64,000 nucleotides of DNA from Spirochaetota bacterium (GTDB lineage Bacteria; Spirochaetota; UBA4802; JAFGDQ01), in contig JAZDKB010000018.1 in NCBI GenBank assembly GCA_043803405.1, positions 64,001-128,000 of the forward strand. Direction: 5' to 3'. Shown piece by piece: positions 18,001 to 24,000 of the stretch; position 1 is the first letter of the stretch; every line of letters starts with the position of its first letter. Made by a program: the position numbers.

Positions 18001-21000
18001 TTTTTATTGACTAATTCATTCATATATGTTTTAAAATTACTATTAAATTCAATTCAAGTATAAATCACTCCGCCTTTATAAGGCAGCAACTCATTAAGAA
18101 TAAACATATTTAAATAAAATAATTTTTTCAGATTTTTTCAAAGCCTTTATTTTATGGAGCATTTCAAATGAAGCAGGATTCAGCCTCGAAATATATACGT
18201 AAAAGAGACGGAAGAATTGTTCCTTTTGACCCCGAAAAAATAACAGAAGCTATCTTTAAAGCAGCAAGGGCCGTAGGCGGCGATGACAGGGATCCGGCAA
18301 AAAGCGTTTCGGATTCGGTAATAGGAATACTCGATATAGTCTGCAAAGATGAAAGAATCCCTACTGTAGAAAATGTTCAGGATCTTGTTGAAAAGATTTT
18401 AATTGAGAAAGGCCACGCAAAAGTCGCAAAGGCTTTTATTCTCTACAGGGAACAGCACAGAAAAATAAGAGAAGCAAAAGCTCTTATTGACGAAGGCTTA
18501 AGCCTTGTTGATGATTACCTGGACAGGTCGGACTGGCGTGTTAATGAAAACAGCAATATGAGTTATTCTCTTCAGGGACTGAACAATCACATAGCGTCTG
18601 CGATTACCGCAAAGTACTGGCTTGAGAGAATATACCCGCCCGAAATACGGGAGGCCCATGTAAACTGCGATCTGCATATTCATGATCTCGGGCTTCTGTC
18701 GGCCTATTGTGTAGGCTGGGATCTTAAGGACGTCCTTTTAAAGGGGTTCGGCGGAGTGAAAGGAAAGGTCGAAAGCAGGCCCGCTAAGCATTTCAGAAGC
18801 GCCCTGGGACAGGTTGTAAACTTTTTTTATACGCTGCAGGGGGAATCCGCAGGAGCGCAGGCATTTGCTAATTTCGATACTTATCTGGCTCCGTTTATTA
18901 AATATGACAATCTATCCTATAAGGAAGTAAGACAGTGTTTGCAGGAATTTATATTTAACATGAATATTCCTACAAGGGTAGGTTTTCAGACACCGTTTAC
19001 AAATGTGACAATGGATATTGTTGTGCCTTCTAACATTGGCGAAGAATATGTGGTCATTGGCGGAGAAATTAAAGATAAAAAATATGCCGAGTTTCAGAAT
19101 GAAATGGATATTTTTAATTCTGCCTTTACGGAATGCCTGCTTGAAGGCGACGCGAAAAACCGCATCTTTACATTCCCTATCCCGACTTATAATCTTACAA
19201 AAAATTTTGATTGGGATAATCCCAAGCATGAGCATTTGTGGGAAATGACGGCAAAATACGGGATTCCTTACTTTGCCAACTTTATAAATTCCGACATGGA
19301 TCCTGAAGACGCAAGGTCAATGTGCTGCAGGCTGAGACTGGATAACCGCGAATTGCGGAAAAGAGGCGGGGGGCTATTCGGAGCAAATCCGCTTACAGGC
19401 AGCATAGGCGTTATAACGATCAATATGCCGAGGCTTGCGTACAATTCCGCTAATGAAAACGAATTCTTTGACAGGCTTGAGCATTTAATGGAATTAGGGA
19501 AAAACGCTCTCGAAGTTAAAAGAAAAGTACTCGAAAGCTTTACGGAAAACGATCTGTATCCTTATACAAAATATTATTTATCCGATATCCGTCAAAGAAC
19601 AGGCAAATACTGGATCAATCATTTTTCCACGATAGGAATAATCGGAATGAATGAAGCCTGTTTGAATCTGATCGGGAAAAATATTGCAACAAAAGAAGGA
19701 AAGGATTTTTCAATAAAAGTGTTAAAATTCATGAGAGAAAGGCTGTCCGAATATCAGGAAGAAACAGGCAGTCTGTTTAATCTTGAAGCGACTCCCGCAG
19801 AAGGCGTTACATACAGGTTTGCAAAGCACGATAAAAATGATTTTCCGAAAATAATTACAGCAGGCAAGAACGAGCCGTATTATACAAATTCAGTTCATTT
19901 GCCTGTTAACGAAGAAGCGGATGTATTCGAGCTTCTTGCTCATCAAAATGAGCTTCAGGCTTTGTTTACAGGCGGTACAGTCGTTCATTGCTTTCTTGGC
20001 GAAAAAATAGACGATCCGAAAATGGTGATGCTTTTAGTAAAGAAAATTGCGGAGAATTATTCTGTTCCGTATTTTACGCTGACTCCGACCTTCAGCATTT
20101 GCCCTGTTCACGGCTATTTGCCCGGCTCCCATGAGTTTTGTCCACATGAGCACAGCGAGGAAGACCTTGAAGCTTACGGAATCGATGCCGATAATGATAA
20201 TAAAGCAGAGACTGTTTTTAAAGCAGTGAGCTGATTTATAGTTTGATTCCACCGTACACTATTTTATACAGGACGACAAAATTGATGATAATTTTAAAAG
20301 TGTATTGCATAAATTAAAAAATTTCTTTAGAGGTAATTATGAAAAAAGGAAAAAAAATCCCGGTGGAAGTATACTCCAGAGTTGTCGGTTATTTCAGACC
20401 TGTTAATCAGTGGAATAAAGGCAAGCAGGAAGAGTTTAGCGAAAGGTTTGAATTTACACCGGAAGCAATCATCGGTACATGTTTGAATGAAAATCAAAGG
20501 TATACAAAAAACATCGCTTGTTGATTATCCCGGGAGATTAAGCACTGTTCTCTTTTTCGGAGGATGCAACTTTTCCTGCGGGTATTGCCATAACCCCGAA
20601 CTGGCCCGCAATGATAACAATCTCAATTCTTATTCTGAATCAGATGTTCTTAATTTATTAAAAGACCGCAAATCATTAGTTGATTCTGTGGTAATTACAG
20701 GCGGTGAACCCACACTTTTTCAGGAACTGTCACCTTTCCTTGAAAAAATAAAAGAAATATCGCTGTTTATTAAAATCGATACTAACGGCTCAAATCCGGA
20801 TGTTATTGAAAACCTGTTAAATAGAAAGATTCCGGATTATATTGCTATTGATATTAAAACTTCCCCGCAAAAGTACAAACTTGCTGCAGGAGTAAATATT
20901 GATTTTAATAAAATTATTAAAACAATAGAATTAGTAAAAGAGTCCGGGATCGATTATGAAGTAAGAACTACCTGTGTCCCATCTTATGTGAACATTGACG

Positions 21001-24000
21001 ATTTTATAAGCATTAAAAATGAAATCGGGAATGTAAAAAAATACTTTCTTCAGCAATTTGTTAACAGCAATACACTCGATCCTTCTTTGCATGAATGCAC
21101 ACCTTACACGGAATCCGTGTTAAATGAATTTAAAGATTACGTAAAAAATTTTTCCGGGTTCTGCGGGATCAGGGGGATATAGCGATTTTTTAAAGTTGAC
21201 AAAAAACTTTAAAAATGCTGTATGCGTATGCGGCGATAAATTTGCTATAATTAGGATTATAAATATTTTTTTGAGCTTTTATAATATAAATTCCATTTAA
21301 TTATTGACCTGTCCGCAACATTAAAACAATAAGTTACATGCTGCTGAGTAAAATAATATAAATTTTTATCAGGATCTGTAGAATATGACAAAACAGTACA
21401 ATGCAAGAGAAAAAAGAAAAAAGGCAAAAAAACGCTTAAAGAGAAAGAAAAAGAAAGAAAAATTGGGAGTTAAGTAGAAACCCGGTCTCTGCGGGAGAGA
21501 ATTGTTGCAGGATCGATCTCACCGACATTATTAAAAATATAGTCCGGCTGATACGGAAAACGAGCAGCTCTTTCTTTTGATGTAACCCCGGATAAAACCA
21601 GGCAAGTGGTCATGCCGGATTCAAGCCCGCCGATTATGTCCGTATCCATCCGGTCGCCTATCATAAAGCAATTGGCGGAGTGGACTCCCAGTTTTTTTCG
21701 AGCTAAATACATCATTATCGGATTCGGTTTGCCTACGAAGTAGGGAGCAATGCCGGTCGTTTTTTGAATGGGCGCCACCAGGGCTCCGCATGCCGGCACT
21801 GGCCCTCTCTTTGTCGGGCCTGTAATATCGGGATTTGTTGCAATAAACCTTGCTCCTTCCTGTATCAGAAGGGAAGCTTCCCTGATAGTCAAATAATCGT
21901 ACTCTTCGGTCTCTCCGACTATAACATAGTCGGGTCTGTTTTTTGTTATTTTAACGCCTGCTGCTTTCAGTTCTTTCAGCAATCCGTTTCCTCCGATCAC
22001 ATAAGCTGAAAATCTTGATTTTTTGTGCACCTGGTAAAGCAGAAAACTTGCCATTGCCATTGCGGATGTATAAAAACGTTCCTTTTCGACTTTTATACCG
22101 ATTTTATTCATACGTTCTTTTAATTCTTCCGGAGTGAAATAAGAGTTATTTGTTAAAAATAAAAATCTGAATCCTCCGTCTTTTAATCTTCCGACAAAGT
22201 CCATTGCTCCGGGGATCAGCACTTTCCCTTTGTTTATAACTCCGTCCATATCAATAATAAATGCTTTATCGTAAGTGATTTTTTTTGTTATCTCTTTTTT
22301 AACACTCATGAGGTAAATACTCCTGTAATTATTTTATGATATAAGTATTTTTTTTTAATGTCCACATATTTTTTTGATAAAAAATTAATGTGTTTAAAAT
22401 AAAATTTTAACTTAAAAATATGTTTGCTTAATAATTAAATATGAATAAAATCGGATTAATTCTAATATCCCGGCAGATATACGTTTTAATATAGTTTTAA
22501 AAAAGTACGTGTAAGAACAAAGATATGCAAAAAAGGGGGTTGACTTGGGAATTACTATTCATACCAAGCCGTTTGGAGAAATTGAAGTCGAAACAAAACA
22601 AATTGTCGATTTCCCGGACGGAATACTCGGATTCGACTTTGTAAAGAAGTTCGTTATTCTTGATTCCGAGGAAAATTCTCCTTTTAAATGGATGCAGGCT
22701 TTTTCAGAACCCGATCTGGCTTTCATTATTATACAGCCTGTTTTTTTTAAGCCGGATTATGAACTTATTATTTCTCAGAGCGACATTGAAGCTGTTGAAG
22801 CTCAGGACGCAAATTCACTTCTTGTTTTTGTAATAGTTACTATCCCTTCCAACCCTTCGGACATGACGGCAAACCTACAGGGTCCAATAATTATAAATAC
22901 AAAGAAACAAATAGGCAGACAGGTTATTTCATTAAGCGATAAATATTGCGTTAAACATAAAATACTTGATGAGATGAAAAATATAGAGCAGGCAAAAGGA
23001 TAAATTTATGCTTGTATTGGCCAGAAAGTTTAACGAAAGCATTATGATCGGCGATGAAATAGAAGTAATCATTATTGAGATAAAAAACGACCAGGTTAAA
23101 CTCGGCATTAAAGCTCCAAAAAAAATCGCAGTTCACAGAAAAGAAGTATATGAAGAAATACAACTGGAAAATATCGCTGCATTAAGTTCAGAATTCAAGC
23201 CCGAAGACTTAAAGCGATTTTCGAATTTTTTAAAAAAGAACAGCAAGTCCGACAAAGACAAAAAATAACTGGATTCGGCTAAGTATAATACAATGGCAAA
23301 AAAGAAACTCTATATAAATAACCTGGTAGACGGCACTATCGATATCGATCTCCAGCTGGAACTTATTGCAGGAGAACATGGCCTGAATAAGGAAATTACC
23401 AGCGGTGATGTAAACAGGCCAGGGTTAAGCCTTGCGGGCTTTTTCGATTTTTTTGCTTTCAGCAGAATACAGGTTTTCGGCCTGGGCGAAACCGCTTTTA
23501 TGAGAAATCTCCCGGATGATAAAATGAAAGAAATGCTGAACTCATTTTTTTCATACGATATTCTCTGCTGCGTGTTTACACATGAAGAAAGACCAAACGA
23601 AATGTTTATCGATCTTGCGAACAGCAGGAACATTCCTACTTTTGTGACAAAATACCGCACAACAAGGTTCGTAAGTCTGTGGACGCATGCTGTTGAAAAA
23701 TATTTTGCGCAAATAATGACCGCGCATGGTTCTCTGGTTGATGTATTCGGCGTAGGTGTTTTACTGCTCGGCAAAAGCGGCGTAGGGAAAAGCGAATGCG
23801 CCCTGGAACTCATCGAGAAAGGGCACAGGCTTGTTGCCGACGATGTCGTGGAAATACAAAAAATCGACGAGCTGTTTCTTTTCGGTAACAGCGCCGAAAT
23901 AATACGGCATCATATGGAAATAAGAGGCTTAGGCATCATTAATGTAAGGGAGATATACGGGATAGCTTCCGTAAGGAACAGAAAAAGAATAGACTTTATT

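Follow-up and report, generated by a model that had tools for sequence, protein, structure and literature searches.

The canonical class III ribonucleotide reductase (RNR), NrdD, is a single chain, as in phage T4, Thermotoga maritima and Prevotella copri. It has an ATP-cone, a barrel, a Cys-Cys loop, a zinc ribbon and a glycyl-radical domain (GRD) motif, all of which are also found in the locus described here. Canonical systems include the activase NrdG, and so does the present locus, where it is of the NrdG2 type. The locus differs from them in that the GRD is a separate gene product, that the fourth zinc ligand is apparently a His (CPHEH) and not a Cys (CPxC), and that a 26-aa tail lies behind the ribbon.

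Small stand-alone proteins that are essentially a GRD are known from pyruvate formate-lyase (PFL), namely E. coli GrcA/YfiD and phage T4 Y06I, which are autonomous glycyl radical cofactors. According to two publications, these proteins are activated by PFL's own activase and dock on the big subunit when it has no usable GRD, and Y06I provides a phage-borne version, as also exists for the present GRD (PMC8683613, PMC13450708). According to a June 2026 review, formate lyases alone among the classes of glycyl radical enzymes have known spare-part proteins (PMC13450708). GrcA has a PFL-type GRD and serves a formate lyase, whereas the present small protein matches NRDD-type models only and has an RNR as its client. 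Moreover, GrcA is a back-up for an enzyme of full length once oxygen has cleaved it, but the present NrdD core is made without a GRD from the start, which makes the small protein obligatory.

A catalytic RNR chain encoded by two genes, cut near the C-terminal end, is also found in the NrdJa/NrdJb pair of Pseudomonas aeruginosa, whose pieces are presumed to reassemble; this enzyme is class II and B12-dependent, and the split-off piece carries a zinc finger and a redox tail but not the radical site, with no activase involved (PMC9669993, citing Crona et al. 2015). Class I RNR, with its alpha and beta subunits, is alike in concept only. Its stable radical sits on a small separate subunit and is passed to the catalytic subunit, but the radical subunit is an unrelated ferritin-like metalloprotein working by long-range transfer, and it has no homology to the present GRD. 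The large subunit of the class Ia NrdA of Aeromonas phage Aeh1 reportedly comes in two pieces and still works, the split being said to have arisen by insertion of a homing endonuclease gene in the class I gene; unlike in that case, no endonuclease was seen at the nrdD/GRD break.

Here, we describe a locus in which the radical-carrying tip of an anaerobic DNA-precursor enzyme is encoded as a separate 61-residue protein. Many anaerobes share this arrangement, and phages carry the small piece as well. A two-piece class III RNR is apparently undescribed: no published description was found in the literature searched, which excluded subscription papers and RNRdb, and within that range the result agrees with the genome-wide survey's note, which had found no earlier description either.

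Layout of the locus and domain assignment

The window, which is the whole stretch of 64,000 nucleotides analysed, comes from a Spirochaetota genome, G000. Its features are collected in Table 1. The layout given in the genome-wide survey's note was confirmed: nrdD ends after its zinc ribbon, the GRD has its own ORF in another frame behind its own ribosome-binding site, this ORF overlaps the start of nrdG, and stops close the spacer in all three frames. Reading in the frame of the small ORF is possible only from position 20318, 84 nt beyond the stop codon of nrdD, which bears out the earlier claim that neither a single frameshift nor read-through connects the two ORFs. The overlap covers the first 38 nt of nrdG and, as read from the gene layout, suggests translational coupling.

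Table 1 Features of the nrdD-nrdG locus, with positions in the window.
Feature	Position	Strand	Remarks
nrdD core gene	18168-20234	+	688 aa; ATP-cone, catalytic barrel, zinc ribbon; without GRD
ATP-cone of NrdD, aa 8-98 (allosteric activity site)	18189-18461	+	PF03477, E 4.6e-23
Finger-loop motif M385-C386-C387-R388, double-cysteine type	19320-19331	+	sequence reading
NrdD zinc ribbon C645-x2-H648 ... C658-P-H-E-H662	20100-20153	+	sequence and alignment
NrdD C-terminal tail, aa 663-688 (26 aa after ribbon)	20154-20231	+	
Spacer between nrdD and GRD gene	20235-20338		104 nt; all three frames stopped
AGAGG, Shine-Dalgarno-like	20329-20333		five bases, then start of small ORF
Stand-alone GRD protein gene, 61 aa	20339-20524	+	
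Codon of radical glycine G17 of the 61-aa protein	20387-20389	+	within EVYSRVVGYFRPVNQWNKGKQEEF
nrdG activase gene, 231 aa	20487-21182	+	
NrdG radical-SAM motif C27-x3-C31-x2-C34	20565-20588	+	

The NrdD core and the small protein match neighbouring stretches of the same models, without overlap. The core covers positions 1-532 of the 562 of Pfam NRDD (PF13597; E 3e-183, 611 bits, cut-off 26.2) and 3-652 of the 684 of NF006126 (1041 bits, cut-off 548), and it scores 531 bits against TIGR02487 (cut-off 326). The 61-aa protein covers positions 531-562 of Pfam NRDD (E 1.1e-9, 37.9 bits, same cut-off) and 651-682 of NF006126, and aligns to residues 610-642 of 4coi_A, the NrdD chain of Thermotoga maritima, which has 651 residues. 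PF13597 alone matches it at E up to 0.01; the PFL-type model PF01228 (Gly_radical) gave no match. The glycyl-radical motif RVxGY is absent from the barrel polypeptide, which stops at model position 532, and lies on the 61-aa protein. The identity of nrdG was also confirmed: its product matches TIGR02495 with 200 bits (cut-off 131), the sole match above the cut-off in G000.

An NRDD barrel, a finger-loop cysteine, a zinc ribbon with apparently variant ligands and an NrdG are thus all present, as in class III RNR. Class I/II models, of the vitamin B12-dependent enzyme and of the diphosphate reductase, match NrdD in the N-terminal ATP-cone region only (within residues 6-140), and the PF02867 RNR that G000 has is encoded by another gene, on contig C20. 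The finger loop MCCR is invariant in 42 aligned NrdD cores; MCCR and MGCR classes are distinguished in a bioRxiv preprint (Burnim 2022). Residues C645, H648 and C658 of the zinc ribbon are invariant among the aligned cores. The end of the ribbon reads CP[HYF][ED]H in members of the order and CPxC in fused and Treponema-type forms, and His662 is probably the fourth zinc ligand, replacing the usual Cys. In the GRD, 18 columns are invariant in an alignment of 55 sequences, and the small protein retains the radical glycine together with every GRD residue that is invariant in NrdD. The NrdD tail matches a linker, S/T-x-E-E/D-L..F/Y-G, which joins the ribbon to the GRD in some fused NrdDs and was found inside those of L102, L105 and L124. 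Being an older linker that fused relatives also have, the tail is not an adaptation to the split.

Conservation and spread of the split

NRDD matches were found in 118 of 122 genomes of the window's order. The large matches nearly all stop within model positions 525-534 of 562, and the small matches are separate from them. A separate GRD ORF adjoins nrdD in 28 of 30 loci of the order, and the other two run off their contigs. These ORFs lie in relative frame 0, +1 or +2 in 15, 7 and 6 loci, respectively, and the spacer measures 18-185 nt in 27 of the 28 (L015 being left out, where the start chosen was clearly too early). Such variation in frame and spacer length rules out a conserved recoding signal. 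Every one of these ORFs comes with a start codon and a Shine-Dalgarno-like motif of its own, and in 27 of the 28 loci the first start codon in the nrdG frame falls inside the GRD ORF. Strong purifying selection acts on the GRD core: over 29 GRD codons in these loci, pN averages 0.060 and pS 0.860, and dN/dS has a median of 0.033 in the 80 of 378 pairs that are unsaturated.

The 656 small homologues of 33-107 aa reported earlier were reproduced, and a search of the phylum gave this NrdD type in 198 of 401 Spirochaetota genomes, in keeping with the 199 of 401 that had been said to have the domain. The statement that the homologues come mostly from Spirochaetota MAGs proved too narrow, as other phyla and phages carry the GRD. 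The split is also found in Thermodesulfobacteriota, in Patescibacteria, in one Micrarchaeia MAG and in one Anaerolineales MAG. It occurs, furthermore, in records named Treponema denticola, T. socranskii and Gracilinema caldarium, where the small piece is either a GRD protein or a GRD + glutaredoxin protein, a form absent from the earlier account. In Treponema-type pairs, a heptad-like helix of about 25 residues closes NrdD, and another, of about 22 residues, opens the small protein; these helices look like a device holding the pieces together. The complete genomes G135 and G199 have nrdD at 0.71-0.72 Mb and their sole GRD roughly 0.6 Mb away, at about 1.27 or 1.32 Mb, in a 95-aa ORF that overlaps nrdG and whose product is identical to that in records named Treponema denticola. 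At another locus, L156, a gene for a DDE transposase sits between nrdD and the GRD gene.

In an IQ-TREE phylogeny of 70 NrdD cores, the GRD + glutaredoxin split forms cluster in a single clade (23 members, support 99) that is nested among fused forms, and the window's order falls in a second clade, which also includes fused forms. In a wider FastTree phylogeny, split forms of Moranbacteria, other Patescibacteria and the Micrarchaeia MAG branch apart from both clades. Judged from these sequence trees, fission has recurred at the same junction in at least two lineages, and probably in more.

Predicted complex and proposed mechanism

Prediction of the complex of NrdD with the small protein gave scores of 0.85, 0.85 and 0.88 (best of three controls, 0.00), which may be high simply from the solved structures of fused NrdDs and show likeness, not binding; the mark for this score is reached by 116 of 157 solved complexes and by 2 of 215 mismatched pairs. 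The runs share at least 84% of their contacts, with a partner pLDDT of at least 73. The predicted interface has 206-218 contacts, with strand pairing, and includes NrdD residues 662, 666-667 and 670-674. The small protein alone is predicted to be disordered (Atlas, pLDDT 0.32).

The two pieces very probably form a working class III RNR, and we infer that activation takes place in trans, that the pieces assemble and that the assembly is catalytic. The reading of the pair as a two-piece NrdD, proposed in the genome-wide survey's note, is well supported by the conservation of the split, purifying selection, the starts and Shine-Dalgarno motifs of the small ORFs and a predicted docking that passes its controls. 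The locus would encode a class III RNR of two polypeptides together with its activase. The NrdD core would provide the ATP-cone, the barrel with its Cys-Cys finger loop and a zinc ribbon of Cys2His2 type; the GRD would be made from its own start codon, its translation coupled to that of nrdG through the overlap. Gly17 of the small protein would lose a hydrogen atom to NrdG, a radical-SAM enzyme, and the small protein would dock on NrdD by pairing its strand V9-S13 with the zinc-ribbon strand T641-C645, the glycine loop extending into the barrel. The radical would then pass to the finger-loop cysteine, the residue that turns into the thiyl radical in class III RNR, and nucleotide reduction would proceed as in a fused NrdD.

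Since oxygen cleaves glycyl-radical proteins at the radical glycine, oxygen damage would cost only the 61-aa piece, and a fresh copy could re-arm the intact core. The odds that the cell can also replace or exchange the small radical piece appear about even. Radical installation requires the GRD to flip out of the core (PMC12662201), and this step could be simpler for a free GRD.

Extra GRD genes and alternative explanations

In genome G000, a single NrdD core, which has no GRD, goes with a single GRD gene and a single NrdG. Elsewhere in the order, G118, G121, G083, G059 and G017 have three to four stand-alone GRD genes each, and G118, a complete genome, has three for one NrdD core. Extra GRD paralogues adjoin unrelated genes, namely an ECF sigma-factor operon and a BirA-like gene. 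In the Patescibacteria loci L122, L130 and L145, a fused NrdD is accompanied by an extra GRD ORF of 96-99 aa, which precedes a radical-SAM ORF taken as nrdG; only there is the layout that of GrcA, a full enzyme plus a spare, and G000 does not have it. Of the best 80 IMG/VR loci, 66 have a GRD ORF standing by itself and lack an nrdD core within 3 kb of it. Terminase, portal or replication genes adjoin the GRD gene in four of six viral loci scanned, and the GRD is the only NRDD match in all five whole viral records, one of them rated 100% complete. Such genomes make sense only if the GRD can enter a core not made with it. The residues of the predicted interface are retained in the paralogues and the phage copies. 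Replaceability, plausible from the sets of three to four GRD genes, the full NrdD with extra GRD and the phages with the GRD only, has against it the single GRD gene of G000, and the large, strand-paired interface of the model would suit a stable complex rather than exchange. The helices at the break in Treponema-type pairs likewise weigh against exchange, as does the tail of the window's NrdD, a linker that fused relatives also have.

It is possible, if somewhat doubtful, that the enzyme functions with two subunits but that its fission was neutral, so that the pieces assemble once and stay together with no benefit for repair or exchange. Such an origin would fit the large predicted interface, the helical extensions at the break in Treponema-type pairs and the one GRD gene and one NrdG of G000; the overlap with nrdG would fit a fixed stoichiometry. 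The linker already present in fused relatives could have tolerated a stop codon and a restart, and NrdJa/NrdJb is a known precedent that needs no spare-part logic (PMC9669993). However, neutral fission has to contend with the recurrence at one junction in at least two, probably more, lineages, with the surplus GRD genes of G118 and four other genomes of the order, with the extra GRD beside a full-length NrdD in three Patescibacteria genomes and with phage genomes that carry the GRD alone.

Instead of or besides being the NrdD radical subunit, the stand-alone GRD could act on NrdG as a decoy or regulator, or carry a radical for some other protein; the unrelated neighbours of the paralogues, phage copies that could in principle inhibit, and a second glycyl radical enzyme of G000, on contig C6, would be in line with this. 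We consider it improbable, as the small protein matches NRDD-type models and not PF01228, retains the invariant residues and is exactly the part that the neighbouring NrdD is without, while the second enzyme has its own GRD (PF01228 1-106/106, in an 831-aa frame) and possibly its own activase, a radical-SAM match about 0.9 kb away. A decaying nrdD, with the small ORF as a relic and a class I/II-type RNR supplying the dNTPs, is less probable still. The split NrdD is the sole RNR in none of ten informative genomes (G000, G135, G199, G207, G391, G118 and four Thermodesulfobacteriota), all of which, G000 included, also have a PF02867 RNR of class I/II type, so that its essentiality cannot be argued; such an RNR is missing only from G447, a Micrarchaeia assembly of 1.0 Mb whose completeness is not stated. 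Against decay stand the intact cores, with all catalytic residues invariant across 42 sequences, the wide occurrence of the split in the order and in several other lineages, the low dN/dS of the small ORF and its retained start codon and Shine-Dalgarno-like motif. Hardly credible, finally, is an assembly or sequencing error, or a programmed frameshift or read-through, that really yields one fused NrdD. The GRD ORF is in the nrdD frame in 15 of the 28 loci, and in some genomes a lone stop separates the parts (for instance, TAA in G038 and G048, TAG in G019), but in the window the frames differ and the spacer is closed in all three, and among relatives its length, its frame and the number of stops vary freely. 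Moreover, the parts lie far apart on the complete genomes G135 and G199, and they are separated by the transposase gene in L156.

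The nrdD locus and its conservation within the order

The class III ribonucleotide reductase (RNR) of the window is encoded in two separate pieces, as the genome-wide survey's note had claimed; its coordinates, closed spacer and complementary family matches were all confirmed. NrdD matches positions 1-532 of the 562 in Pfam NRDD and 3-652 of the 684 in NF006126, and the small protein, which carries the glycyl-radical domain (GRD), matches NRDD at 531-562 (E 1.1e-9) and NF006126 at 651-682. The small protein was aligned with residues 610-642 of the 651-residue Thermotoga maritima NrdD chain 4coi_A. 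The source genome, G000, has a single NrdD core (NrdD without the GRD), a single GRD gene and, above the cut-off, a single NrdG. An unrelated second glycyl radical enzyme is located outside the window on contig C6, with an intact PF01228 match in an 831-aa frame and its own GRD; the radical-SAM match near it may be its activase. A scan of 17800-21500 gave 15 promoter-like sites against 11.7 ± 3.4 in shuffled sequence and 2 terminator-like sites against 2.8 ± 1.7, none above expectation, and no convincing NrdR-type box was seen upstream of nrdD by eye.

Coordinates of the genes described in the text (positions without a prefix are those of the window)
Feature	Location	Strand	Remarks
nrdD	18168-20234	+	688 aa
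Spacer between nrdD and small ORF	20235-20338		104 nt, all three frames closed
Small GRD ORF	20339-20524	+	61 aa; AGAGG at 20329-20333, then five bases to the start
nrdG	20487-21182	+	38-nt overlap with small ORF; TIGR02495, 200 bits (cut-off 131)
Second glycyl radical enzyme and radical-SAM match of G000	G000:C6:41015-41329, G000:C6:39575-40141	-	about 0.9 kb apart
Unlinked GRD paralogues beside an ECF sigma-factor operon	L175, L177, L180, L123		Pfam on L175 only: sigma-70 regions 2 and 4
Unlinked GRD paralogues beside a BirA-like gene and a symporter-like ORF	L176, L181, L182, L119		BirA tested in L176 only
Extra 96-99 aa GRD protein after fused NrdD	L122:3147-3434, L130:3125-3415, L145:3116-3412		own CxxC pairs
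Phage GRD genes	IMG/VR L191-L270, e.g. L192:3001-3162, L199:2974-3138, L204:2998-3132, L205:2983-3147		44-180 aa; among terminase, portal and replication genes

The two-gene class III RNR is real and conserved. NRDD matches were found in 118 of the 122 genomes of the window's order, where nearly all large matches end at 525-534 of the model and short separate frames match its last 30-40 positions. A separate GRD ORF follows nrdD in 28 of the 30 order loci read, the window's included, and the remaining two loci run off their contigs. All 28 ORFs possess an ATG of their own together with a Shine-Dalgarno-like motif. At 27 of these loci, the nrdG frame has its first start codon inside the GRD ORF; since nrdG was taken to begin at that codon, the larger overlaps (down to -137 nt) may be overestimates. 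Over the 29 codons of the GRD core, the 28 loci have a mean pN of 0.060 and a mean pS of 0.860, with a median dN/dS of 0.033 (80 unsaturated pairs of 378), values that show purifying selection. An alignment of 55 small proteins has 18 invariant columns, the radical glycine among them. Furthermore, the Cys-Cys finger loop M385-C386-C387-R388 and many barrel residues are invariant among 42 aligned NrdD cores.

In the window, the frame of the small ORF opens first at 20318, which is 84 nt past the nrdD stop codon, and because the spacer is closed in all frames and this frame is open only from there, no single frameshift or read-through could join the two products. Among the 28 order loci, the GRD ORF lies in frame 0, +1 or +2 relative to nrdD (15, 7 and 6 loci, respectively) and the spacer measures 18-185 nt in 27 of them; in the other, L015, the start as chosen (96 aa, spacer -56) is clearly too early, as close relatives start 63 aa before the stop. 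With frame and spacer varying in this way, a conserved recoding device is excluded. The possibility of a group I intron or an intein at the break was also rejected: the spacer has 104 nt here, its length varies among relatives and no such element was matched. An assembly error is excluded by conservation in more than 100 genomes.

A second, distant type of NrdD is present in 5 of the 122 order genomes (G034, G068 and G002, at loci L085, L086 and L087, and also G062 and G079). At the three loci, this protein has 939-964 aa and a fused GRD, and its Cys-rich C-terminal tail ends in CxxGVC.

Distribution and origin of the split

A search of the phylum found the NrdD type of the window in 198 of 401 Spirochaetota genomes. 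Outside the order, matches that end at about 650-670 of the 684 model positions also occur in many families, and full-length matches without internal stops are restricted to a few. Among 40 loci read from these other families, 14 are fused (NrdD and GRD on one chain), 22 have an adjoining separate GRD ORF and the remaining 4 lack a nearby GRD. The separate protein of Treponema-like families has 154-216 aa in 19 of 20 loci with a complete ORF (L069 runs off its contig), and it consists of an N-terminal helix followed by the GRD, then a linker and finally a glutaredoxin/thioredoxin-like domain with a CPxCP motif. This last domain is likewise placed after the GRD in the fused relatives L044 and L068. 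A 181-aa query of the GRD and glutaredoxin form matched 1374 proteins of 99-317 aa at E <= 1e-5, with Gracilinema caldarium, Leadbettera azotonutricia, Breznakiella homolactica and Treponema sp. among the named sources; a 184-aa form is present in Treponema socranskii. In two complete genomes, G135 and G199, nrdD is located at 0.71-0.72 Mb without an adjoining GRD, and the sole GRD, a 95-aa ORF that overlaps nrdG, is found at about 1.27 or 1.32 Mb; the product of this ORF has the same sequence as records named Treponema denticola. Families f17, f20 and f29 have GRDs that read SRVVGF or SRMVGF (L060, L078, L079, L080, L083), with Phe after the radical glycine where Tyr is usual; L060 is a split form with an adjacent GRD. 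The state of L107 is ambiguous (scored once as fused and once as split) and this locus was omitted from the argument.

The survey's note had placed the stand-alone domains mostly in Spirochaetota MAGs, a scope that proved too narrow. A GRD-less core followed by a stand-alone GRD ORF is found in the Thermodesulfobacteriota (Thermodesulfatator autotrophicus S606, Thermodesulfobacterium thermophilum DSM 1276, a Caldimicrobium MAG and other MAGs), and also in an Anaerolineales MAG, in Patescibacteria and in a Micrarchaeia MAG. The two-gene class III RNR has a broad distribution. The small proteins appear in public records as 'hypothetical protein' or as 'anaerobic ribonucleoside-triphosphate reductase', the latter being a misleading name for them. 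In Moranbacteria and other Patescibacteria, GRD proteins of 90-104 aa (L126:2845-3114, L135:2809-3120, L167:2806-3117) have, before the GRD, zinc-ribbon-like Cys pairs of their own; CPKC is retained in the adjoining NrdD core in L126 and L135, and L167 is without nrdD within 3 kb. In one Spirochaetota MAG, a DDE_3 transposase gene (L156:1767-2891) separates the nrdD core from the GRD gene. The pair thus tolerates being parted, and this layout suggests a possible route to the unlinking of the two genes.

An IQ-TREE tree was made from 70 NrdD cores and three outgroups. The 23 split forms with GRD and glutaredoxin make a single clade (support 99) that is nested among fused forms, and the window's order is placed in another clade (support 99), which also contains further split rows and a clade of fused forms. 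The tree thus points with confidence to at least two independent fissions, in each of which the GRD was cut off after the zinc ribbon. A second tree, wider and made with FastTree, grouped the window's order with split forms of Thermodesulfobacteriota and Anaerolineales and two fused relatives, and placed the splits of Moranbacteria, other Patescibacteria and Micrarchaeia apart. In this weaker tree the fused L043 and L044 are nested inside the Treponema-type split clade, whereas they are outside it in the IQ-TREE tree, which was relied on.

The NrdD tail of the window, CPHEH-SEEDLEAYGI..., has the same linker that is found inside the fused NrdDs of L102, L105 and L124, and the break therefore fell in a pre-existing linker. 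The zinc ribbon of the window, at 20100-20153, reads C-x2-H ... C-x3-H (CPHEH) instead of the C-x2-H ... C-x2-C found elsewhere, and the window's NrdD subfamily has CPxEH where others have CPxC. This suggests a His as the fourth zinc ligand, giving a putative Cys2His2 site. In the Treponema-type pairs, a heptad-like helix of about 25 residues ends NrdD and one of about 22 residues begins the small protein; neither is present in fused relatives, and together, as read from sequence, they could form a zipper. This comparison of tails covers the rows up to L056, with 16 further loci left out.

Additional and viral glycyl-radical domain genes

Stand-alone GRD genes are present in 3-4 copies per genome in five genomes of the order. 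The complete genome G118 combines one NrdD core with three GRD genes (at 4.640, 1.351 and 4.794 Mb). Unlinked paralogues have the motif SRVSGY or SRISGY and occur in two neighbourhoods that recur in different genera of the order. In addition, three genomes of Patescibacteria (Paceibacterota / Minisyncoccales) encode a full-length fused NrdD with its own GRD, in frames of 713-717 aa, followed by an extra GRD protein and by a radical-SAM ORF taken to be nrdG. This layout resembles that of GrcA, in that a spare is located beside an intact enzyme.

Viral sequences also carry GRD genes. Among the 80 best IMG/VR loci, the GRD ORF stands alone in 66, where no nrdD core occurs within 3 kb; the other 14 comprise one with a truncated nrdD upstream, two fused forms, four at contig edges and seven without a pattern match. 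An annotated phage collection gave two matches. Terminase, portal or protease, or primase and helicase genes adjoin the GRD gene in 4 of 6 IMG/VR loci scanned. In all 5 whole viral records, of which two have terminal repeats and one is rated 100% complete, the GRD of about 30 residues is the only NRDD match, and no NrdD core occurs anywhere on them. The second GRD gene of genome G148 (L083, G148:C140, ~1501-1611) lies among SSB and HNH endonuclease genes, in what looks like a prophage or other mobile region.

Predicted assembly and possible exchange of the radical subunit

Glycyl radical enzymes are usually pictured as single chains in which the C-terminal domain swings out to reach the activase. 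To our knowledge, GrcA, the spare part of pyruvate formate-lyase, is the only free radical domain known. The small protein alone is predicted to be disordered (pLDDT 0.32). Complex prediction with NrdD residues 105-688 and the small protein gave scores of 0.85, 0.85 and 0.88, the best of three controls scoring 0.00; the mark for this score is reached by 116 of 157 solved complexes and by 2 of 215 mismatched pairs. Contacts agreed between runs to at least 84%, with partner pLDDT of at least 73. The tightest predicted contacts are between NrdD 641-645 and residues 9-13 of the small protein, and between NrdD 657-658 and residues 7-9; the NrdD tail 662-674 also touches the small protein. Because fused NrdD structures are solved, this pass is a likeness to those structures and falls short of proof of binding. 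The split class III RNR is very probably a working two-subunit enzyme, in which the radical would be kept on a separate subunit, as in class I RNR. All genomes in which the test was informative also encode a class I/II-type RNR, so that essentiality of the split NrdD cannot be argued.

Whether the radical subunit is also replaceable, as the survey's note had proposed by analogy, appears evenly balanced. In favor of exchange, beyond that analogy, are several GRDs per core, a spare beside a complete enzyme and GRD genes alone in phages; the residues of the predicted interface are kept in the GRD paralogues and phage copies. Against it are the single GRD gene of G000, the large predicted interface and the possible zipper, which suggests a stable complex. 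A wider reading, tentative and with the odds leaning somewhat against it, is that NrdD-type GRDs form a widespread family of autonomous, interchangeable radical-cofactor proteins, and that class III RNR is modular in many anaerobes, phage-supplied GRDs included. If so, a long-lived catalytic core would work with a disposable radical subunit of 50-190 aa, sometimes with a glutaredoxin-like reductant domain, in Spirochaetota including Treponema denticola, Thermodesulfobacteriota, Patescibacteria and others. The radical subunit would be replaceable after oxygen damage and drawn from several differently regulated paralogues, and the phage GRD would re-arm the host reductase during infection. Phage GRD genes without nrdD would then be a new, very small kind of auxiliary metabolic gene. 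The small subunits with GRD and glutaredoxin suggest that radical storage and reductant delivery can be packaged together.

In the open literature, we found no description of a split class III RNR or of an NrdD-type spare part, in agreement with the survey's note; RNRdb and subscription journals were outside this scope and a prior mention is possible. Among the papers compared were Burnim et al. 2022 (bioRxiv preprint 10.1101/2022.04.23.489257), a related Protein Science paper of the same year (PMC9669993), Lundin 2010 (PMC3019208), a 2025 StNrdD paper (PMC12662201) and PMC11528403. A split class II enzyme, NrdJa/NrdJb, is already known (PMC9669993). According to Andorfer et al. 2021 (PMC8683613), only YfiD and the phage T4 protein Y06I are validated as spare parts, and the existence of others is speculated. 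A two-piece class III RNR would provide a natural minimal NrdG substrate of about 7 kDa and a direct means to separate radical installation from catalysis, and it would allow the repair of oxygen damage to be tested by a swap of the small subunit. The arrangement is testable now, because it has cultivable carriers: Treponema denticola, Gracilinema caldarium, Thermodesulfobacterium thermophilum and Thermodesulfatator autotrophicus.
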